Under the pieces are notes generated by a model, which saw nothing but the letters and a program-made list of their open reading frames with translations, made no database searches and was not told the DNA's origin. This document shows, one piece after another, positions 17,054-33,060 of a stretch of DNA of 64,000 nucleotides. The stretch comes from a virus. The stretch is taken from positions 32,001 through 96,000 of the IMG/VR virus record IMGVR_UViG_3300046804_003518; one strand, 5' to 3'. A program made the position numbers and the translations under genes. The first letter of the stretch is position 1. Every line of letters starts with the position of its first letter.

Positions 17054-20000
17054 ATGGCAACAAAGTTTCAGATTAAAAGAACGTCTGTAGCTGGACGTAC
17101 GCCTAATACATCTAATCAGGCTAATTCATCCTATATTGCAGCTGGTGAGCTAGCTGTCAATCTTACGGACAAAAAGCTATATTCTTCTAATGGTACCTAT
17201 CATTTTGAGATTGGTGCCTTTGATGTACAGTTAGTTAATTCAACTTCTAACGTATCCACATACACACAAATTTCTACTCTTCAATTTGACGAAGATAGTG
17301 GGTTTGATGTAACAAATCCTTCCGCGGGCATTGCTAAGGTTGCAATGAACAGTACATTCAAGTACTGGCAAGTTGATGGTGTTACTAAGCTAACTGCAAC
17401 TGGTCTTGATACCGTAAACTTTATCGGTGGCAATAATGTTCTAATTACTGCCAATGGTGCCAATACACCTCAATCTATTGCCTTTGCAACTTCAATGACG
17501 CCAACATTTACAAGCGTCACGTTTGGCAATAGCACAGTTAACACAACAATCAATTCTTCTGCTATTGCAGTCACTAAAATTTTTGCAAACGGTTTTGTTG
17601 GCACAGCTGGTAAGGTACTGACTTCAAATGGCACAGGTGGCATCTATTGGAGTGATCCAACATCTGGTGGCGGTGGCGGTGGTGACCTTACAATTATTAG
17701 CGATACGTTTAATGGTAATGGATCTAACACACAATTTACTTTATCAGTTACAACACAAACCAATAAAACATTTGTTTACCTAAATGGTGTCCTACAAGCT
17801 CCAACAACAGATTACTCTGTTGCCAACAATATTCTAACATTTGCAACAGCTCCTCCAAGTGATAATGCTATTGAAGTAAGAACCTTTGACATTCCATCTG
17901 TTGCTGACTTGACAGTTACAAGCGACAACTTTACTGGCAATGGTTCCAATACCCAGTTCACACTTACAACATCATTATCATCAGACCAAACATCGTTAGT
18001 ATTTCTAAACGGTGTCGCTCAAGTACCAACAACAGATTATACAATATCTGGTAGTACTCTAACATTTACAGCTGCTCCAGCTAATGGTACCAATATCCAG
18101 GTTACTAGCTATACCGCTGAAGATATTGCTACAACAACGTATACTGGTAATGGATCTAACACACAATTTACACTTGGTACAACATCTACCACTTCTAAGA
18201 CAGTAGTTTCTCTCAACGGTGTTACTCAAACTCCTGTTGCTGACTATAGCGTTTCAGGTGCTATTCTAGTCTTTAGTGTTGCACCAGCCAACGGCGATAA
18301 GATCATTGCTAGATCAATCCCATCTACAGCATCGTCTACTGCTGGTAGTAACACTAATGTCCAATACAATAAGTCTGGGTCGCTTGGTGGCTCGGCTGGC
18401 TTTGTGTTTGATGAGACAACCAACAACGTCACGATTGCTAATACATTAACTGTACCTAACCTAAGAATTAGTGCCTCTAACCCTCCAGCCAACTCTACTG
18501 CCACTGGTACGACTGGTACTATTGCTTGGGATAGTAGCTACCTATATGTTGCCACTGGCACAAATACTTGGAAGAAGACACCAATTACTACTGATGGTGC
18601 TGGTGGCGGAGGTAGTGCCAATACTGCCGGCGCCAATACTGAAATTCAATTTAACGACAGTAATGCTCTTGGAGCTAATAGTAAGTTCACGTTTAATAAG
18701 GACACAACGACATTAGCAATTGGCTCAAACGTAACAGTCAATACAAGTACTATCTTTATTGGTAACAGTACAGTCAACACAACAATCACAGCCGGCAATG
18801 TTCATCTTCAAGGCACTCAGTTAACTGTTGGCAATGTTGTTATTACAGGATCGCAAATCACTGTTGGTAATAGTACTGTTAATACAGTAATTGGTGCCAA
18901 TTCGTTTGGTGTCGGAATGTTGAGGGATTCATTTACTGGTAATGGATCAAACACCCAATATACATTATCATCTACACCAACTGACGAAAGTCACACACTT
19001 GTATTTGTTGATAGAGTTATTCAAAGAGATGCTGATTATAATATATCTGGTACAACATTAACATTTACAGCAGCTCCTGATAACGGGTCAGAAATAGATG
19101 TTTATATTGCCCGAGCTGGAATAGCCACGTTGTCAGGCAATGGTTCTTCAATTACATCTGTTAATGCAGCTACAGTTGGTGGCAACACTGCTTCTACACT
19201 AAGATCATATTCAGATACAGTTGCTGCCACTGCTTTCTCTAATGCTGCTGCAAGAGCCGATTCAGCTTATTCTAATGCTGTAAGTTATGCAGACACCAAA
19301 GCAGCTACAGCTTATAGTAACGCCACAAGTTATGCTGATACAAAGGCAGCTACTGCCTATTCAAATGCAACCTCATACGCTGACACTAAGGCGGCCACAG
19401 CATTTTCTAACGCAGCCTCAAGAGCTGATAGTGCATATAGTAATGCAGTAAGTTATGCAGATACAAAGGCAGCAACAGCTTATAGCAATGCTACATCGTA
19501 CGCTGATACTAAAGCCTCGGCCGCTTACTCAAATGCGATTGCCTACTCGGGTAATGCGGCGGCCGCCTATACCAATGCAGTTGCATATGCTAACTCAACA
19601 TTCCTACCTCTTGCTGGTGGAACATTAAATGGTACACTGACATTTGGGAATAGCACTGTTAATACAGTAATTAATTCCACTTCTGTTGTTGTTACAAAGG
19701 TTGTTGCTAATAGTTCTGCTGGATCAGACGGACAAATACTAACGTCTAATGGAGCTGGTGTTTATTGGGCTAATGCAGCATCAACATCAAAGTATTCCAA
19801 TCAGTATTTACTCACTGGAACAACAACAAATGCTACAGAAACAGAAATATTCATTGATGGTGGAGCAACAAGAATACCAGTAGCAGTCAATAAGACAGTT
19901 TACTACACAATTGATTGTGTCTGTAGAAGAACAGACTCAACAGGTGACCACGGCGCGTTTTTTCTAAAGGGTGTTGCAACAAATGCAAGCGGAACAACAA

Positions 20001-20164
20001 CAGACGTTGGTTCTATTTACGAAGTTATTGTTACTAGGTCTGATGCTAACTTTGCAATTGACGCCAGAGCAAATAACGCAAGCGATTCAGTAAACATATT
20101 TGTTACCGGGGCAACAGGAAAGACTGTGTCCTGGAGTTGTGTCGTTACAACAATGGAAGTATAA
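17054..20164 (+). CDS. Tail fibre protein: gp37-like anchor, four ~60-aa beta-sandwich repeats, coiled-coil stalk, C-terminal head
   Basis: FQIKRT..AG..P...GELAVNL.D.KLYS anchor; four repeats of (F/Y).GNGSNTQ(F/Y)TL...V.L(N/D)GV.Q.P..DY...G..L.F..AP.NG..I; AYSNATSYADTKAAT repeats. Confidence 0.8.
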   Translation: MATKFQIKRTSVAGRTPNTSNQANSSYIAAGELAVNLTDKKLYSSNGTYHFEIGAFDVQLVNSTSNVSTYTQISTLQFDEDSGFDVTNPSAGIAKVAMNSTFKYWQVDGVTKLTATGLDTVNFIGGNNVLITANGANTPQSIAFATSMTPTFTSVTFGNSTVNTTINSSAIAVTKIFANGFVGTAGKVLTSNGTGGIYWSDPTSGGGGGGDLTIISDTFNGNGSNTQFTLSVTTQTNKTFVYLNGVLQAPTTDYSVANNILTFATAPPSDNAIEVRTFDIPSVADLTVTSDNFTGNGSNTQFTLTTSLSSDQTSLVFLNGVAQVPTTDYTISGSTLTFTAAPANGTNIQVTSYTAEDIATTTYTGNGSNTQFTLGTTSTTSKTVVSLNGVTQTPVADYSVSGAILVFSVAPANGDKIIARSIPSTASSTAGSNTNVQYNKSGSLGGSAGFVFDETTNNVTIANTLTVPNLRISASNPPANSTATGTTGTIAWDSSYLYVATGTNTWKKTPITTDGAGGGGSANTAGANTEIQFNDSNALGANSKFTFNKDTTTLAIGSNVTVNTSTIFIGNSTVNTTITAGNVHLQGTQLTVGNVVITGSQITVGNSTVNTVIGANSFGVGMLRDSFTGNGSNTQYTLSSTPTDESHTLVFVDRVIQRDADYNISGTTLTFTAAPDNGSEIDVYIARAGIATLSGNGSSITSVNAATVGGNTASTLRSYSDTVAATAFSNAAARADSAYSNAVSYADTKAATAYSNATSYADTKAATAYSNATSYADTKAATAFSNAASRADSAYSNAVSYADTKAATAYSNATSYADTKASAAYSNAIAYSGNAAAAYTNAVAYANSTFLPLAGGTLNGTLTFGNSTVNTVINSTSVVVTKVVANSSAGSDGQILTSNGAGVYWANAASTSKYSNQYLLTGTTTNATETEIFIDGGATRIPVAVNKTVYYTIDCVCRRTDSTGDHGAFFLKGVATNASGTTTDVGSIYEVIVTRSDANFAIDARANNASDSVNIFVTGATGKTVSWSCVVTTMEV
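19232..19594 (+). repeat. Coding tandem repeats of 15 aa (AYSNATSYADTKAAT) and 11 aa (AFSNAAARADS)
   Basis: Read directly from the translation; codons are diverged between copies. Confidence 0.9.
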
Positions 20165-23050: not shown

Positions 23051-24151
23051 ATGGCAACAACAGCTAAAATCGCAAGGACGGATGTACCTGGTGAAGTACC
23101 AAATATATCCGACAGCTCAAATAGTTCATACATTGAACCAGGTGCATTGTTCATCAATGTCACTGATCAAAAGCTATACTCTTCAAATGGGTCAAACTAT
23201 TTTCAGATTAGTGGGTCTGGTGGTGGGTCTGCTAATGTTTCTGTCATTTCCCAAACATTCACTGGCAATGACACAAACACACAGTTTACACTATCCACTT
23301 CTGCCAATACATCTAGAACATTTATATTCTTAAATGGTGTTGCCCAGGTACCAACTACTGACTATTCTATAACCGGTACTACACTAACATTTGTTACTGC
23401 TCCTGCCAATACTGATACTATCCATGCCCATATTCTGGATATTAGTAACCCAAATGATGTGGAGTTTACATTTGATAATTTTGTTGGTAATGATACCAAT
23501 ACCCAGTTTACGCTTGGTTCATCTCTATCATCTAATGCGTATGCGTTAGTATTTCTAAACGGTGTTGCCCAGGTACCAACCAACGATTATGGTGTATCTG
23601 GCGCCAATCTAACATTCACTGTTGCACCAACATCAACAGATAACATTAACATTGTTGGTATTAATGCTGCCGATAACTTAATGGTGACAACATTTATTGG
23701 AGATGGCACAACAAAGAACTTCACTCTAACAGACCCATCTACAACAAATAAGACATTTGTTTATTTAAATGGTGTTGTCCAGAGGCCAACAACTGACTTT
23801 TTTGTGACAAATAAAACACTAACATTTATTACAGCGCCAGCAAATAACGACAAAATTACAGTAAGAACCTTTTTCTATAGACTAGATGCAAGCGGCACAA
23901 ACACGTTTGTCCAGTTTAATGATTCAAATGATATTAGTGGGTCACCAGGATTCACGTTTGATAAGACAACAAACAACGTATCAGTAGCTAATACTTTAAG
24001 TATTGGCCAGCTAAGATTTACGGCCTCAAACCCTCCTGCGACAGCTGTTGCTCCTGGAGTGGCAGGAACAATAACGTGGGATTCGACCTATATCTACGTT
24101 TGTGTTGCTACAAACACGTGGAAGAGGGTTCAGATAGCAACTTGGCCATAG
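23051..24151 (+). CDS. Short fibre protein, paralogue of the N-terminal half of the 17054 gene
   Basis: Same anchor (SSYI..G.L..N.TD.KLYSSNG), three beta-sandwich repeats, and SNPPA....G..GTI.WDS.Y.YV....NTWK at the C-terminus. Confidence 0.8.
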   Translation: MATTAKIARTDVPGEVPNISDSSNSSYIEPGALFINVTDQKLYSSNGSNYFQISGSGGGSANVSVISQTFTGNDTNTQFTLSTSANTSRTFIFLNGVAQVPTTDYSITGTTLTFVTAPANTDTIHAHILDISNPNDVEFTFDNFVGNDTNTQFTLGSSLSSNAYALVFLNGVAQVPTNDYGVSGANLTFTVAPTSTDNINIVGINAADNLMVTTFIGDGTTKNFTLTDPSTTNKTFVYLNGVVQRPTTDFFVTNKTLTFITAPANNDKITVRTFFYRLDASGTNTFVQFNDSNDISGSPGFTFDKTTNNVSVANTLSIGQLRFTASNPPATAVAPGVAGTITWDSTYIYVCVATNTWKRVQIATWP

Positions 24152-24161
24152 TTTAAAATAA

Positions 24162-24169
24162 CATAAATA
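24162..24169 (+). promoter_or_regulatory. Late promoter variant
   Basis: CATAAATA upstream of the 24210/24411 genes. Confidence 0.6.
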
Positions 24170-24209: not shown

Positions 24210-24398
24210 ATGACAACTAAAATTAAACCATCTAACGTCGAAGAAGCTGTATATCCAGTCACTGCCAACAACGCAAATAACCTTGGCGGTACACCAGCTA
24301 ATCAACATTACACGGAAGCAAGAGTAACAATCACTGGTACAACCCCAACAAATGTGGGTGCAACATCTAACGGTCATATTTGGCTAGTTTACCAGTAA
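24210..24398 (+). CDS. 62-aa putative fibre-tip adaptor
   Basis: A.NA..LGG..A fibre motif and C-terminal TPT....SNGHIWLVY, similar to the P....GDIW..Y ends of fibres that carry a separate adhesin. Confidence 0.55.
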   Translation: MTTKIKPSNVEEAVYPVTANNANNLGGTPANQHYTEARVTITGTTPTNVGATSNGHIWLVYQ

Positions 24399-24410: not shown

Positions 24411-27400
24411 ATGCCAGGTAAATTATTCTTTAATGACAACGGCACTCTGAGAGAAGCCGAAATTCTGAAAGTCAACGATGGCGGTATTCTACGTACCGTT
24501 AGGGATGCCTATGTTAATCAGAATGGTGTTCTAAGGCAAATTTACTCTGCTACAAAAGATACATCATACGAAACTTCTAGATCAACTGTATTTGAGACAG
24601 TCATTGTCACGACATTTGATACAACAATTTCAACAAATAGAAATACAACAACTGCTTTTGTGACGTTGTTTGAAACTGGCTATGATACAAGCAAGGCAAC
24701 TGCAACAAATAGAAACACTTCTACATCCAGAGCAACTGCCTACGCTACAACAAGAACAACTGCAACTGTATTTCAAACTTTAACCGTATTTGAAACAACA
24801 ATTGGTACTAATAGAGTAACATCAACCTCTAGGGCTACCACGACAAGTTTCCTCACTAACACTGTATTTGAAACAACTATCAATACAGCAAGAAATACTG
24901 CAACTTCTAGAGCTACCACAACAATATTTATTACAAACACTGTATTTGAAACAACTATCAATACAGCAAGAAATACTGCAACCTCAAAATCAACTGCAAC
25001 GGTATTTGACACCAATACAGTATTTGATACAACAATTAATACAGCAAGAAATACTGCAACAAGCAGAAGTACAGATTCTGTATTTGATACTGTAATTGGC
25101 ACAAATAGAACTACTCTATCTGTATTCAATACCGTTACGGCGTTTCAAACAACAACGGCGTTTGAAACTGCTTATGCTACAACCACAGTATTCAATACGA
25201 CAACTACGTTTGATACGGTAATTGATACTGCTCGTAATACAGCAACCACAAGATCTACAACCACTGCTTATGACACTGGGTATGATACAAGTAAGATAAC
25301 AAATACAGTATTCAATACTGGTACAATAAAAGATACCGTTATTGACACATCTAGATCTACTGCAACAAGTATAGCTACAACAACTGTCTTCCAGACGGCC
25401 TATGCTACAAGCAGAGCCACAGCAACTAGCAGATCTACAGATACTACAATTGATACATCTAGAGCTACAGCAACTAGCAGATCCACAGATACTACAATTG
25501 ATACATCTAGAGCAACGGCTACCTCTAGAGCAACTGACACAACAATTGTTACATCTAGGTTGACAGATACGTCTCAATCTACCACAACAACATTTAACAC
25601 AACAACGACGTTTGACACTGCTTACGCAACGACGACGACGTTTAATACTACAACTACGTTTGACACAGCATATGCTACGACAACAACGTTTAATACCACA
25701 ACTACGTTTGATACTATAATTGCAACAACAAGAGCAACAGACACTTCAAGATCAACCACTACTACGTTCCAAACAACGACAGTATTTCAAACAACTACTA
25801 CATTCCAAACAACAACTACGTTTAACACTATTACAACTTATATCACCTCTCTAGGTGGTAACACTGTATTCCAAACAACAACTACGTTTAATACTATTAC
25901 AACGTATATTACCACTCTTGTTGCTGGAACAACTAGAGCAACTGACACTTCAAGATCAACTACTACCACGTTCCAGACAACGACTGTATTTAATACAATC
26001 ACAACGTATATTACTACTCTTGTTAATGCAACTTCAAGAGCAACCGATACATCTAGAGCCACAACTACAACATTCCAGACTACAACTACATTTGGTACTA
26101 CGTTCTTCTTTAATACAAGTAAGGCAACAACATTCTACTTCAATACAACAACTACATTTGGTACTACGTTCTTCTTTAATACAAGTAAGGCAACTACGTT
26201 TTACTTCAACACATCTGTTATTACAACAACAACATTTATTACGTCAGCTGTTGGTCTTACAACGTTTATTACAACGGCTGTTGCTGGTACAAGTAAGGCA
26301 ACGACGTTCTACTTTAACACAACATACATCACAACAGCCGCTGCTGCAACCTCTAAGGCTACAACATTCTACTTTAACACAAGTGTTGGTGGTACTACAT
26401 ATTTCAGCTCAGGGTTCATAACAACATTCTACACAGTGATTGGTATAGCCTATTACAAATGGTGGTCAAACCAGTACTTTGGCAATACAACCAGAGCCAC
26501 ATCTGTAATTACATCCAAGGCTACAACATTCTACTTTGGCACAAGTGCTGGTGGTACTACCTACTTTAATACAACATTCTACTTTAATACAGTTAGAGGT
26601 ACCAGTGCTGGTGGTACTACTTTCTTCAACACTACCTTTTATTTCAATACGTCTAGAAACACGACGTTCTACTTTAACACAGCTAGAGCAACAACATCTA
26701 CCTTTATCACAACTCTAGGTGGTATCACAACATTCATTACAACTCTAGGTGGTACAACATCTAGAGCAACAGGTACTTCAGTTGGTGGTATTACTACATT
26801 TATTACAACATTGGGTGGTACAACATCTAGAGCAACAGATACGTCTAGAGCAACTACAACCACATTCCAAACAACAACAACGTTTAACACTACGTTCTTT
26901 TTTAATACAACTCTTGCTACAGCCACTTCTAGAGCAACAGATACGTCTAGAGCAACAACTACAACATTTCAGACAACAACTGCATTCAACACAACATTCT
27001 TCTTTAATACAACTCTAGCAACTGCAACTTCTAGAGCAACTGATACGTCTAGAGCAACTACGTTCTTCTTTAATACTACTTTGGCCACGGCAACAAGTAG
27101 AGCAACCGATACATCTAGAGTAACTGATACTTCTAGAGCTACTGACACATCTAGAGCTACAACAACAGTTTTCCAAACAACAACAACGTTTGAGACTGCC
27201 TATGCTACAAGCAGAGCTACCGCAACCAGCAGATCTACTGACACAACAATTAGCACATCTAGAGCTACTGCAACAAGTAGAGCAACAGATACAACAATTA
27301 GCACATCTAGAGCTACTGCAACAAGTAGAGCTACAACTACTGTCTTCCAGACAACAACAGCATTTAATACAGCTTATGCTACAACAACGGTATTTGATAC

Positions 27401-28370
27401 TACAACAACATTTGCTACTGCATATGCAACCACAACAATATTCAACACAACTACAACATTTGCTACTGCATATGCTACAACAACGGTATTCAATACAACG
27501 ACAACATTCGACACTGTAATTGATACAAACAAGTCAACTACTTCAGTATTCAATACAACCACAACATTTGCTACTGCCTACCAAACATCAGATGTTAAGT
27601 CAACTAACTTTGATACATCAACTGCCTATAACACTCTTGTTGGTACAAGCAAGTCAACAATATCAACATTTGATACATCTACTACATTTCAGACAGCTTA
27701 TGCAACAAATAGAGTTACTGCTACAGATAGATCAACCGACACTATAATTGGCACTTCTAGAGCAACTGAGACATCTAGAAATACAGCTACTGATAGAAAT
27801 ACCGTAACGGCATTTGAAACTGCATATGCTACAAACATTGCAACAACAACCGTATTTGATACATCAACAACATTTGAAACTTCTTATGCTACTGGTAGAA
27901 ACACATCAACCAACCGTTTAACGACATCGGTGTTTGATACATCAACAACATTTGAAACGACGTATGATACAAACTTTGATACACTAACCAACCGTTCAAC
28001 AACATCGGTATTTGATACATCAACAACATTTGAAACAACTTATAATACAAACTTTGATACACTTACAAGCCGCTCAACAACGTCTGTATTTGATACAACA
28101 ACATCATTTGAAACGACGTATGACACAAATATCCTTACATCAACTTCAAGAAATACAGTATCAACATTTGATACCGAGATTGTAACTGTATTTGATACTG
28201 TAACGGTATTCAATACAACAACATCTTACGACTCGCAATATGGCACAGACCGTGCAACAAGTAAGACAACAACTTCTGTGTTCAATACAGCCTATGCTAC
28301 AAATCGCAATACGGCATTCAACACATCACAAAACACAACATTCAATACAACTATCGAAACATACTTCTAA
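24411..28370 (+). CDS. 1319-aa Thr-rich filament protein: 50-aa attachment domain plus mirror-symmetric arms around an aromatic tip (predicted giant beta-hairpin)
   Basis: N-terminus LFFNDNG.LRE...KVNDGG..R.V..AYVNQNGV.RQIY, then T-x-(R/K/F/Y/I)-x and T-x-T-x-(R/K/F/Y/I)-x units; tip IAYYKWWSNQYFGN at 26445-26486. The function call is inference. Confidence 0.7.
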   Translation: MPGKLFFNDNGTLREAEILKVNDGGILRTVRDAYVNQNGVLRQIYSATKDTSYETSRSTVFETVIVTTFDTTISTNRNTTTAFVTLFETGYDTSKATATNRNTSTSRATAYATTRTTATVFQTLTVFETTIGTNRVTSTSRATTTSFLTNTVFETTINTARNTATSRATTTIFITNTVFETTINTARNTATSKSTATVFDTNTVFDTTINTARNTATSRSTDSVFDTVIGTNRTTLSVFNTVTAFQTTTAFETAYATTTVFNTTTTFDTVIDTARNTATTRSTTTAYDTGYDTSKITNTVFNTGTIKDTVIDTSRSTATSIATTTVFQTAYATSRATATSRSTDTTIDTSRATATSRSTDTTIDTSRATATSRATDTTIVTSRLTDTSQSTTTTFNTTTTFDTAYATTTTFNTTTTFDTAYATTTTFNTTTTFDTIIATTRATDTSRSTTTTFQTTTVFQTTTTFQTTTTFNTITTYITSLGGNTVFQTTTTFNTITTYITTLVAGTTRATDTSRSTTTTFQTTTVFNTITTYITTLVNATSRATDTSRATTTTFQTTTTFGTTFFFNTSKATTFYFNTTTTFGTTFFFNTSKATTFYFNTSVITTTTFITSAVGLTTFITTAVAGTSKATTFYFNTTYITTAAAATSKATTFYFNTSVGGTTYFSSGFITTFYTVIGIAYYKWWSNQYFGNTTRATSVITSKATTFYFGTSAGGTTYFNTTFYFNTVRGTSAGGTTFFNTTFYFNTSRNTTFYFNTARATTSTFITTLGGITTFITTLGGTTSRATGTSVGGITTFITTLGGTTSRATDTSRATTTTFQTTTTFNTTFFFNTTLATATSRATDTSRATTTTFQTTTAFNTTFFFNTTLATATSRATDTSRATTFFFNTTLATATSRATDTSRVTDTSRATDTSRATTTVFQTTTTFETAYATSRATATSRSTDTTISTSRATATSRATDTTISTSRATATSRATTTVFQTTTAFNTAYATTTVFDTTTTFATAYATTTIFNTTTTFATAYATTTVFNTTTTFDTVIDTNKSTTSVFNTTTTFATAYQTSDVKSTNFDTSTAYNTLVGTSKSTISTFDTSTTFQTAYATNRVTATDRSTDTIIGTSRATETSRNTATDRNTVTAFETAYATNIATTTVFDTSTTFETSYATGRNTSTNRLTTSVFDTSTTFETTYDTNFDTLTNRSTTSVFDTSTTFETTYNTNFDTLTSRSTTSVFDTTTSFETTYDTNILTSTSRNTVSTFDTEIVTVFDTVTVFNTTTSYDSQYGTDRATSKTTTSVFNTAYATNRNTAFNTSQNTTFNTTIETYF
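24561..28367 (+). repeat. Coding 4-/6-residue Thr repeat array with mirrored organisation
   Basis: Hand parse: 52 tetramers plus 70 hexamers = 628 aa in the N arm; the identical length series in reverse in the C arm (627 aa, last unit TYF). Confidence 0.9.
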
Positions 28371-28376
28371 ACGCAT

Positions 28377-28384
28377 TATAAATA
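28377..28384 (+). promoter_or_regulatory. T4-type late promoter
   Basis: Exact TATAAATA ahead of the three genes following the Thr-rich gene. Confidence 0.8.
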
Positions 28385-28403: not shown

Positions 28404-28607
28404 GTGATTAACATGATTGATGAACCAAGAGTTAGTAATGAACAGCTTGATAAAAAGCTAGAGTCTTTTGTAGAGGTTGTTCTCCAAAAGATGATTGATC
28501 TCCATCAGGAAATCAAAACGCTAAAAAAGAAAGTCCACGACGCTGAAAAGAAGCTACAGGCCCTTGAACAAGGGTCAACGGAAGTAGACGAGCGTCTTGG
28601 CATTTAA
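28404..28607 (+). CDS. Small coiled-coil protein
   Basis: LHQEIKTLKKKVHDAEKKLQALEQ heptads; start is GTG 28404 or ATG 28413. Confidence 0.55.
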   Translation: MINMIDEPRVSNEQLDKKLESFVEVVLQKMIDLHQEIKTLKKKVHDAEKKLQALEQGSTEVDERLGI

Positions 28608-28621
28608 TAGGAAATTATATT

Positions 28622-29608
28622 ATGGTAGCTGAAGTTCCAGGTAAGGGTGGAAAGAATAAATTCTTTACTATGTCTTCAAATGAGTGGGTAAACGATGATG
28701 TAACCCATTTTATGAAGTCTGGTAATATACTAAGGTCTCCAATCAACGAGAGACTATCCGAAATAGCCAAGCACATTCCTAAGAATCCAAATGGATCCAA
28801 AATTGAGTATGATATCAATTATGGTAGTCCAAGTGGCACAATTGCTGGTTATAAATTTACGGATTTGTTAACTCAGATACTCTATCTTGCTCCATGTAAT
28901 ACCCAAATTGCAACAAAGAATATGATTGATTGCATTAGAAAGGGAGCAACTCCAGAAGGCCATAGAATTGTAGAGGCCCTAAGGGCAAATCTCACCGATA
29001 AGTATCTTTTAGACGAAGACCTTGATCTTGAATACGGCGATGTTAACGAATTAGTGCTCCTCCCAGGTACTAACCTTATAACAAAAGATGCTGTGGACTT
29101 TAAGAAGGTAGACGAACTCTATAATAATGGAGCTTGGGTTAAGCTCCATCCTATTACCGCTAAGGTTTGGCAAACTATGCTTGAAAAAAGATTCAAGGGT
29201 AGAGTTGTAAAAAACGAAGCATCAATGTATCCAATATTGAAGCGCTCAAAGAAGGTTTACTTCACCCTATCCTCTGAAACCGGATGTGCTGCCGTTCTTT
29301 TAGGTAAGGGAATTGGTCTTATTGATAATAAAGAAGCAAAGGTTGGTAAGACATTTGAAGCTGTTTATATGTCACTTGACAGAAGTGGCGTAAAGGATAA
29401 ACTAATTAATAAGTTTGCTGCCCTCATGTCCTACCCTGAATCAGGATTGATTAGCGTTCACCACGAAAATAAAGAAGAATGTATTCAAAGATTTTTTGAC
29501 AACATGAAGCAGCATAGACACGTTACGTTATCAAAGAAGCCTGGTGAAGAAGGGGATGATGTTATTGTAAAAGAGCTAGAACAACAGGGTGGATTGAAGC
29601 AACAATGA
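28622..29608 (+). CDS. Putative GT-B glycosyltransferase-like protein (capsule synthesis KpsS/KpsC-like C-terminal pattern)
   Basis: VLLPG...WVKLHP...LKRSKKVYFTLSSETGCAAVLLGK resembles the VKxHP...LI..A..V.T.NS.VG.EA.L.GK pattern. Remote similarity only. Confidence 0.45.
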   Translation: MVAEVPGKGGKNKFFTMSSNEWVNDDVTHFMKSGNILRSPINERLSEIAKHIPKNPNGSKIEYDINYGSPSGTIAGYKFTDLLTQILYLAPCNTQIATKNMIDCIRKGATPEGHRIVEALRANLTDKYLLDEDLDLEYGDVNELVLLPGTNLITKDAVDFKKVDELYNNGAWVKLHPITAKVWQTMLEKRFKGRVVKNEASMYPILKRSKKVYFTLSSETGCAAVLLGKGIGLIDNKEAKVGKTFEAVYMSLDRSGVKDKLINKFAALMSYPESGLISVHHENKEECIQRFFDNMKQHRHVTLSKKPGEEGDDVIVKELEQQGGLKQQ

Positions 29609-31944: not shown

Positions 31945-33060
31945 TGTTTGGCAACGAATTTTATCACGAGACAATTAGACGCTATGTCATCGTATTTGGT
32001 ACGATGTTTAATGATATGGTCGTCTGGAGAAAGAATGCCGCTGGTACTATCGTTAAGCGCATTAAGGTGCCTATTGCCTATGGACCTAGAGCAAAGTTTT
32101 TATCAAGAATTCAACAAGATCCAAATTTAACAAAACCAGATGCAATTAGCTTACCAAGAATGAGTTTCCAAATTACTGGATACAATTATGATGCGTCTAG
32201 AAAACTTTCAACTGCTAATCAAATCAAAACACCAGCTGATTCCGACAGGAAAAATTCATCCGTATATAACCCTGTCCCTTGGAACATAGATTTTGACTTG
32301 TCAATTTACGTTTTAAATGCTGAAGATGGTACGATGCTAATTGAGCAAATACTACCATACTTTACTCCAGAGTGGACAAATACTATTAAGCTTGTAGACG
32401 ATTTAGATCTTCGTATGGATGTCCCAGTTGTATTAAATACTATTACAACCGAAGACACATATGAGGATGCTTATGAAAATAGAAGAACTATTATTCATAC
32501 ATTAAATTTTACAATGAAGGGTTATGTGTTTGGTCCAGTTAAAGATAAGAATATTATTAATACAGCTCTAACAAGAACATTCGTTGCTCCTGGATTTGAA
32601 GCTGATATTGAAACTGCAAATAGTGGACCAAATGCAGTAATTGGTGTGGGAATAACAAACGCTGGCAGCGGCTATGTCAACAATCAGATTATTACATTCT
32701 CTAATGGTACAAGCAACAGCACTGCTAAGATTACTACAAACGCTACTGGCTCTATTACCAGCCTAGTAATACTAACTGGTGGTAACTTTGCAAATTCATC
32801 TATTATCAGAACTCAAGTTGCTAATACTACAACTACATCTAATGCAACAAACGGTAACACTTCTGCAGGTACTGGTGCAGTATTTAATGTAACGCTTGGC
32901 TCTGAACTATTCTACACAACTGTTACAGTAGCACCTGGATTGGATGCTAATGGTAATCCAACCACAAACGCTGAAATATCAATTGCCGCCAATAGTATTG
33001 CTGCTAACGATAATTGGGACTTTATCATTACAACAAATACGAACCCCAATTTTCCAGTAG

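Follow-up and report, generated by a model that had tools for sequence, protein, structure and literature searches.

An uncultured T4-like phage catalogued in IMG/VR (record IMGVR_UViG_3300046804_003518) encodes, within the 64,000-nucleotide (nt) stretch analysed here (positions 32,001 to 96,000 of that record, hereafter the window, whose numbering is used throughout), a protein of 1319 amino acids (aa) whose two halves pair with each other from end to end. The open reading frame (ORF; 24411-28370, + strand) is likely, at a probability of roughly three in four, to specify a virion fibre whose shaft forms by the chain folding back on itself. That the halves pair antiparallel, in a single register and under a residue-pairing rule, had been proposed from the DNA and its translations alone (the sequence-only reading), and this proposal was borne out by internal statistics, by covariation of the two arms among relatives, by compensatory changes and by matched tandem arrays. 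Held with somewhat less assurance, though we still favour it, is the broader claim that the fibre represents an undescribed architecture, namely a single-chain, two-stranded beta ribbon of hundreds of rungs whose register is set by a digital pairing code (Thr:Thr, aromatic:basic, aromatic:aliphatic and aromatic-triplet:Gly-triplet), which evolves like an RNA stem, in the sense of compensatory substitutions and matched duplications on both arms, and which provides many uncultured T4-like phages, as well as at least one cultured phage (DLP6), with a portable shaft of tunable length.

An antiparallel register with a residue-pairing code

The fibre protein is dominated by Thr (488 residues, 37%), followed by 119 Phe, 66 Arg and 45 Tyr, with only 2 Trp; His and Cys are absent and the single Pro is residue 2, leaving the arms Pro-free. 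Behind a head of 48 residues (24411-24554, + strand), which consists of three 14-residue repeats with the core N-D-x-G-x-x-R, Thr recurs at every second position across ~1270 residues. When every antiparallel register i+j=S was scored, independently of any parse into units, one peak emerged at S=1368, with 181 T:T pairs (at most 133 elsewhere) and 124 large:large pairs (at most 88 elsewhere). This register runs without an insertion or deletion (indel) through 635 residues per arm and joins the N arm (aa 49-683; 24555-26459, + strand) to the C arm (aa 685-1319; 26463-28367, + strand). Its centre is W684 (1368/2 = 684), within the turn YYKWWSN at ~aa 681-687 (26451-26471, + strand), and the end of the C arm faces residue 49, that is, the head boundary.

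The two faces of the chain differ sharply in charge, with all 76 basic residues at odd positions and none at even ones, and 68 acidic residues at even positions against a single one at an odd position, so that the two-residue parity never slips. The odd (‘T’) face comprises 317 pairs, of which 166 are T:T, 74 basic:aromatic, 45 aliphatic:aromatic and 4 aromatic:aromatic, while basic:basic and aliphatic:aliphatic pairs do not occur. All 139 positions of the N arm that are neither Thr nor Ser lie opposite positions of the same kind in the C arm, which has one more. Within the true register the partners are themselves specific (R:F 61, K:F 8, I:Y 19, I:F 4, F:G 9 and R:Y 1), and the partner preference among R:F, R:Y, I:Y and I:F gave a Fisher p of 4e-14, a value inflated by repeats. 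Towards the tip, in a distal aromatic-rich zone (~aa 560-810; 26088-26840, + strand), FYF and FFF triplets stand opposite GG-, AG- or VG-containing triplets and form F:G and Y:G pairs; cross-strand aromatic:Gly pairs are known to stabilise antiparallel sheets (‘aromatic rescue of glycine’). Aromatic residues make up 9-10% of the mid-shaft and 19-26% of the part close to the tip, a gradient kept in the close-relative loci L015-L018, and 20 of the 21 even-face aromatics fall within aa 566-886 in the distal zone, the remaining one being aa 1318.

Both the mirror and the pairing exceeded what permutation produces. Shuffling the order of units, whether throughout the body or within the C arm alone, gave 160±5.5 matching pairs (maximum 183), where 308 were observed. 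Complementary pairs, of which the protein has 119, numbered 57±5 (maximum 76) when partners were redealt with the mirror kept. A parallel arrangement of the arms was ruled out, as its best offset satisfied the code at 28-30% of positions versus 48.5% for the antiparallel arrangement. An inverted repeat in the DNA was likewise rejected as the source of the mirror: the fibre gene contains no long inverted repeat at DNA level, and the symmetry therefore exists at the protein level only.

The unit structure proposed in the sequence-only reading held in outline and failed in its details. The chain had been described as consisting only of T-x-Z-x and T-x-T-x-Z-x units (Z being R, K, F, Y, I, L, V or A), a grammar that, taken literally, yields zero strict parses; a penalised parse instead divided the protein into 245 units, nearly all of length 4 or 6, of which 199 were strict and the variants included TTFYFN, TSAGG and units with S replacing T. 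Under this parse the string of unit lengths in the C arm is that of the N arm reversed, as had been suggested, and the N-arm count of 52 tetramers and 70 hexamers (628 residues) was reproduced. Mirrored unit lengths mean, however, that Z of N-arm unit k faces Z of C-arm unit k+1 rather than k. Pairing k with k put the Z residues one unit out of register, so the R:Y code assigned to tetramers was an artefact, the true register holding one such pair. In that register all 74 basic:aromatic pairs hold, and basic:basic pairs are lacking, as the earlier reading had also stated.

Equal arms among relatives carrying the same head

Residues 3-48 of the head match positions 3-48 of phrog_13729 (E = 5.9e-8), with the N, D, G and R invariant in all three repeats; in the fibre protein the hairpin takes the place of the globular domain that makes up the rest of that profile. 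This genome has one copy of the head, whereas proteins of other phages have it in front of unrelated, small globular domains, from which we infer that it is a modular anchor domain. For example, a 175-aa protein on a short contig (L012:2730-3257) combines a triple N-D-N-G-T-L-R head with a small globular C-terminal domain, and its gene follows an SU10-type head-tail adaptor gene at a distance of two genes, a hint that the neck region is where the head docks.

Scanning IMG/VR with the head as query yielded 52 loci, in ~40 of which the head is followed by a protein of 35-40% Thr. Covariation was assessed in 24 distinct proteins, complete with head and hairpin and 662-1425 aa long. Every one shows a single dominant gap-free fold-back register and zero basic:basic pairs; the fold-back centre tracks protein length (r = 0.998), and the arms, which range from ~305 to 635 residues, are equal in all of them, as an out-and-back chain had been expected to show. 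The difference between S and protein length was 15-17 in 20 of the 24, -7 in two with a C-terminal extension and 47-48 in two near relatives, compared with 49 in the fibre protein itself.

Several of these relatives also carry sequence beyond the paired arms. In a distant subgroup of head-type proteins (L019-L057; S minus length 15-17) the C arm overshoots the N arm by ~32 residues, and the protein terminates in a conserved non-repeat segment of ~45 aa (F-D-T-E-V ... W-D-G-S-x-W-S-E) that would sit at the base, next to the head. In the same subgroup ~30% of T-face pairs involve other residue types, indicating that the code has dialects. The two closest relatives (L015 and L016) have ~55 aa beyond the hairpin that hold the motif T-D-S-G-A-G-T-M, which recurs in the C-terminal part of a second hairpin protein of this genome (2035 aa, described below) and may be a shared docking or turn motif.

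The relatives also bear on the proposed tip. A 14-residue tip at 26445-26486 had been read as a Trp/Tyr receptor-binding element; that segment does contain the geometric centre, W684, but receptor binding by it is doubtful, as the nearest relatives have loops of 3-5 residues (FKGQP, YKGIP, SPY) without an aromatic cluster. Given that the loop varies even among near relatives, we do not accept a receptor-binding tip as established. The conserved feature is the distal aromatic-rich zone, ~120-150 residues per arm, rather than the tip loop.

A hairpin shaft fused to a baseplate-wedge domain

In a second family the Thr-hairpin shaft is fused to a baseplate-wedge domain of ~530 aa, and the gene occupies the gp7 position, behind gp53, gp5, gp25 and gp6. 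The cultured Stenotrophomonas phage DLP6 carries a member, AAY80_265, which is listed by the DLP6 authors only as gp7 (PMC5349666). When 19 gp7-fused orthologues were aligned independently of pairing, the invariant columns proved to be the T-face threonines, and 70% of T-face cells fitted the code at the true register versus 13-46% with the partner slid. The aromatic residue switches arm in 17 column pairs, and coordinated changes from I:Y to R:F occur. In a subset of eight orthologues the code fit was 79% versus 14-50% slid, and 1786 of 2033 aligned cells were also partners in the individual register of each protein, despite values of S from 1606 to 2079, which shows that indels in one arm are matched in the other. 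One gp7-fused protein, P0002, has a globular insertion of ~115 aa within the N arm; judging by arm length, its C arm should resume pairing past the insertion.

The fibre protein is not itself a wedge protein of the gp7 type (PF23786 / phrog_17744): it has the 48-aa head alone and no ~530-aa wedge domain, and the Thr-hairpin module is the sole part that it shares with the gp7-fused proteins. This genome (a 188-kb record, rated complete) encodes the wedge domain as a protein of its own, 665 aa in length (phrog_17744, E = 1e-143). Directly after it, upstream of the window, lies the second hairpin protein, P0021, a Thr-rich protein of 2035 aa (L010:2789-8896, equivalent to G000:C1:22288-28395) that begins with a DUF4183-like unit. 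It forms a gap-free hairpin with arms at 63-515 and 594-1046 (453 residues each) around a 78-residue tip insert, followed by a weaker second hairpin that pairs 1049-1275 with 1276-1502. Its last ~500 residues contain about seven copies of T-F-Q-T-D-S-G-A/K-G-T-L.

The fibre protein, the 2035-aa protein, the gp7-fused proteins and the 24 head-type relatives thus all belong to one class of Thr-rich mirror-coded hairpins, defined by a gap-free antiparallel register, T:T rungs, equal arms, one aromatic per non-T pair and no basic:basic pairs.

Matched tandem arrays in the two arms

Five tandem arrays in the N arm of the fibre protein (periods 78, 48, 48, 102 and 66 nt) each face, at exactly the corresponding position, a C-arm array with the same period, showing that expansions were matched on both arms. 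The first, with ~3 copies of 78 nt (24823-25087), stands opposite the period-78 array at 27841-28129; the register i+j=1368 maps aa 138-217 to aa 1151-1230, or nt 27861-28100. Two arrays of period 48 (25413-25558 and 25584-25715) stand opposite 27330-27508 and 27213-27335, the partners computed from the register being 27363-27509 and 27207-27338, and the 16-aa cassettes of these two arrays complement each other. The arrays of period 102 (25868-26093) and 66 (26082-26213), which together span 25868-26213, have register-computed partners in the C arm, where the counterparts are found at 26821-27061 (period 102) and 26718-26842 (period 66). All N-arm arrays are on the + strand.

Complementarity also occurs within an arm. 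At 25350-25780 (aa 313-455) three TSRATATSRSTDTTID-type cassettes are followed by three complements of the TTTTFNTTTTFDTAYA type, an arrangement that makes an alternative local hairpin possible and that has a mirrored counterpart in the C arm. This local hairpin (aa 313-381 with 387-455) scored 62 versus 602 for the global one, and such local complementary cassettes could matter for folding order or misfolding.

Mutually complementary cassettes could in principle mispair, and the code fits pairing between chains as well as pairing within one. The complementary arms might accordingly be imagined to join different chains, yielding domain-swapped dimers, longer filaments or a mesh. We regard this as very improbable. 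The register of every relative closes exactly at the head boundary and is centred on a short loop or an inserted tip domain, as a hairpin predicts; intramolecular pairing is favoured both kinetically and entropically; and the gp7-fused forms have their anchor at one end, to which the C-terminus returns.

Repeat evolution raises a different question, namely whether the mirror is only its by-product and the protein a low-complexity, mucin-like or disordered Thr spacer (possibly O-glycosylated) or a beta-solenoid. The Thr content of 37%, the lack of any Pfam or PHROG model matching the arms, the low confidence of structure predictors and a conserved neighbouring gene with sub-threshold hints of a KpsC/KpsS-like glycosyltransferase all point in this direction. 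Repeat evolution alone, however, can neither yield a reversed and complementary order of units on a distant segment nor hold the arms equal in 24 relatives. Mucin-type regions are rich in Pro, Thr and Ser, whereas the arms are Pro-free (the one Pro of the protein being residue 2) and keep a strict two-residue parity with segregated charges. That unbroken parity comes without a constant coil period, repeats of 16, 22, 26 and 34 aa occurring in one chain, and the irregular order of 4- and 6-residue units departs from the T-x-T beta-solenoids of the insect antifreeze or ice-nucleation type; a solenoid would also leave the reversed complementarity unexplained, which counts against it. Glycosylation is compatible with a ribbon and is no alternative to it. 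We therefore give this explanation scarcely any credence.

A proposed fold-back shaft

The arrangement that best accommodates these findings is one in which the 48-residue head anchors the protein to the particle and the chain would run out for 635 residues, turn at ~Y681-N687 and return for 635 residues in exact antiparallel register. Such a course would bring both termini to the base, so that the head would anchor the fibre and the turn would be distal. Most probably the two arms would make up a single unbroken antiparallel beta ribbon of two strands, with one face carrying Thr:Thr rungs and, every 4 or 6 residues, an aromatic opposite Arg or Lys or opposite Ile, Leu, Val or Ala, giving way near the tip to FYF triplets opposite Gly-rich triplets, and with small, polar and acidic residues on the other face. 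The code would lock the register in a manner comparable to base pairing in an RNA stem: owing to the irregular spacing of 4 and 6, other registers clash (14-50% valid at slides), which is how the code fixes the register. The shaft lengthens through duplications that must match on both arms, and it is a portable module, which relatives join to a gp7 baseplate-wedge domain, a DUF4183-like domain or the head described here.

A continuous beta-hairpin had been put forward in the sequence-only reading; the fold-back pairing that it implies is strong, while the beta-ribbon geometry is something we infer. Beta structure is consistent with the unbroken two-residue parity over 1270 residues, the Pro-free arms, the richness in T, F, I, V and Y and the aromatic:Gly pairs, and in a two-stranded ribbon one face corresponds to one hydrogen-bonding class, which fits the location of the whole code on one face. 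The ribbon would then measure ~200 nm (635 x 3.3 Å). It is probably attached near the neck or baseplate and may serve long-range host contact through its aromatic-rich distal part.

Structure prediction agreed with the register at low confidence. AlphaFold2 gave a mean predicted local distance difference test (pLDDT) score of 41.8 for aa 558-810 as a single sequence and of 34.8 for a DLP6-like hairpin with a 19-row alignment. In the latter model, the strand pairs assigned by DSSP (64-82/549-567, 109-137/492-520, 153-171/458-476 and 228-241/390-403) have sums of 629-631, compared with a predicted 631. Strands thus appeared at mirrored positions in both low-confidence models, which is consistent with the register and is not proof of it. 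A complex prediction of the head and first 82 N-arm residues with the last 82 residues scored 0.00, a result that came without controls and speaks neither for nor against binding.

Several points weigh against this interpretation. Tandem repeats in the arms make many pairs non-independent and inflate the p-values obtained within the protein, and among the 19 gp7-fused orthologues slides of ±4 still gave 45-46% valid cells and 8-12 swapped pairs, as the pattern is quasi-periodic. The predicted structures are of low confidence (pLDDT 42 and 35), and a free two-stranded ribbon of ~200 nm with both faces exposed to solvent is without precedent. The host-binding role rests on context, the tip loop being unconserved. 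In addition, Arg sharing a face with Phe and Thr fits a buried core in a bundle equally well.

This last point leads to a bundled form, in which three fold-back chains would assemble into a six-stranded trimeric fibre with the Thr/aromatic/Arg face turned inward. To our knowledge, phage fibres are nearly always trimers, which counts in favour of such a bundle. The T4 gp37 needle is itself an out-and-back trimer (PMC6957217), the segregation of a uniform face of T, F, Y, I and R from the acidic and most polar residues is what a buried face would show, and the head has exactly three repeats, though these could equally form a pseudo-trimer within one chain. We nonetheless consider a trimer unlikely, in part because gp7 orthologues carry the shaft at their C-terminus (PMC5349666). 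The protein has no His and hence no HxH metal sites, 62 Arg and 14 Lys would need burial, and no sequence relative exists among solved structures. T4 gp7 is present in one copy per wedge. As the same shaft is fused to gp7, we tend to favour one hairpin per chain, with trimerisation not being obligatory.

No described protein family or fibre architecture that we could find in databases or the literature accommodates the fold-back fibre. The whole protein had no matches in Pfam or PHROGs, a phmmer search against all PDB chains (gp37 included) had none at E <= 1, and comparison with cultured phages, by megablast for the region and by tblastn for the head, returned nothing useful. A phmmer search with aa 1-1200 against 1.84 billion representatives gave 12 matches, mostly to the head; composition probably suppresses the phmmer scores of the Thr arms. 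The literature search found no description of a mirror-coded fold-back fibre, and neither a hairpin class nor a threonine class appears in a paper presenting a tail-fibre atlas.

Genomic neighbourhood

The fibre gene lies in a late structural module. Upstream are tail-fibre-like proteins composed of DUF4183-type repeats (17054-20164 and 23051-24151; N-G-V-x-Q ... D-Y ... L-T-F), and downstream are gp13, gp14 and gp15 (neck/sheath-stabiliser), the terminase, which is ~54% identical to those of T4-like cyanophages, and the sheath. The DUF4183-type repeat unit is also found at the start of the 2035-aa hairpin protein and at the end of the gp7-like protein.

The ORF immediately preceding the fibre gene is p62, which is 62 aa long and ends in NGHIWLVYQ (24210-24398, + strand). 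It has no family match, and tblastn located homologues just upstream of the hairpin gene with 94-95% identity in near relatives and 32-73% in several distant ones. A late-promoter-like CATAAATA with one mismatch precedes p62 (24162-24169), and the T4-type late-promoter motif TATAAATA occurs at 28377-28384 (+ strand), immediately past the stop codon of the fibre gene. There are nine matches to TATAAATA in the window (for example at 28377, 30494 and 35184), all on the + strand, a count that is not significant alone, being reached by 11 of 100 shuffles. Both sites that were checked (28377 and 30494) lie just before a gene, and the sites are consistent with T4-type late promoters.

Downstream, a 67-aa coiled-coil-like ORF, cc67 (28404-28607, + strand), had only weak matches, to coiled-coil families, and is kept in L015-L018. 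It is followed by p328, a protein of 328 aa (28622-29608, + strand; phrog_26179, E = 7e-74); almost every locus that is long enough has a p328 homologue 150-200 nt downstream of its hairpin gene, even at 25-30% identity. Across near and distant loci, the cassette therefore consists of the hairpin gene with a p328 homologue downstream and often a p62 homologue upstream, the other neighbours not being conserved. The p328 family is abundant in marine metagenomes (at least 177 clusters, all unnamed), and its invariant residues include a K-x-H-P-I-T motif and S-E-x-G. Two of 18 p328 homologues matched PF05159 (Capsule_synth) below threshold (best E = 0.093), and PF05159 was found in 14% of the members of one related Atlas cluster, while p328 itself had no Pfam match and no relative in a profile search of PDB sequences. 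A glycosyltransferase identity for two downstream genes was considered and not established: the KpsC/KpsS-like matches of p328 are all sub-threshold, and a downstream 297-aa protein belongs to no family and has only Atlas matches below the reliable range. p328 is a candidate assembly factor or Thr-modifying enzyme.

Relation to known fibres and fold-back proteins

If correct, the proposed architecture would explain a widespread set of blank-annotated, ‘low-complexity’ giant genes in marine T4-like phages, would be a rare case in proteins of stem-like covariation readable from a single sequence, and would provide a natural, evolvable rule set for designing beta ribbons of chosen length. The idea is directly testable, as the module is present on the gp7 orthologue of a cultured phage, DLP6.

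Gene order invites a comparison with T4 fibritin (wac), as in both cases the gene lies between tail-fibre or baseplate genes and the gp13/14 neck genes. Fibritin is a long thin fibre with a short N-terminal anchor, built as a parallel trimeric coiled coil with a C-terminal foldon, and the fibre protein has no sequence or family match to it.

The T4 gp37 needle (domains D10-D11; PDB 2XGF) likewise belongs to a phage fibre and is elongated, its chain extending to the distal tip and coming back; there the strands are beta and the receptor-contacting end is at the turn. The fibre protein shares this out-and-back topology, to judge from its antiparallel register and covariation. D10 of the needle comprises residues 811-881 plus 1010-1026, and the out-and-back trimer holds seven iron atoms bound by His (PMC6957217). 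In contrast to this obligate His-iron trimer, the fibre protein has no His, and its arms of 635 residues are about six times longer than the ~100 residues per arm of the needle. Moreover, gp37 has neither a Thr ladder nor an aromatic:basic register code, and no sequence similarity between the two is detectable.

Outside phages, Larson et al. are said to have described in PNAS in 2010 that the stalk of the streptococcal antigen I/II consists of N- and C-terminal repeat regions of a single chain paired antiparallel. There, too, the functional domain is at the far end, the termini are at the base and the repeat regions are length-matched, but the stalk is an alpha helix wound with a polyproline-II helix, ~50 nm long, on a bacterial surface and without a residue code. 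Similarly, in SMC and Rad50 arms the chain folds back, N- and C-terminal segments pair over ~50 nm, arm lengths co-vary and the apex is functional, although the packing is of alpha-helical heptads and both family and function are different. The central sheet of Borrelia OspA and its engineered extensions demonstrate that cross-strand side-chain pairs can stabilise a single-layer sheet whose two faces are both in contact with solvent, albeit with three strands, a few tens of residues and globular caps. Known long fibres are built from coiled coils, collagen-like helices, triple beta-helices or spirals, or tandem domains; the fold-back fibre, if its proposed structure is correct, would add to these a new way to build a long protein fibre, a self-complementary beta zipper with its register held in a pair code.

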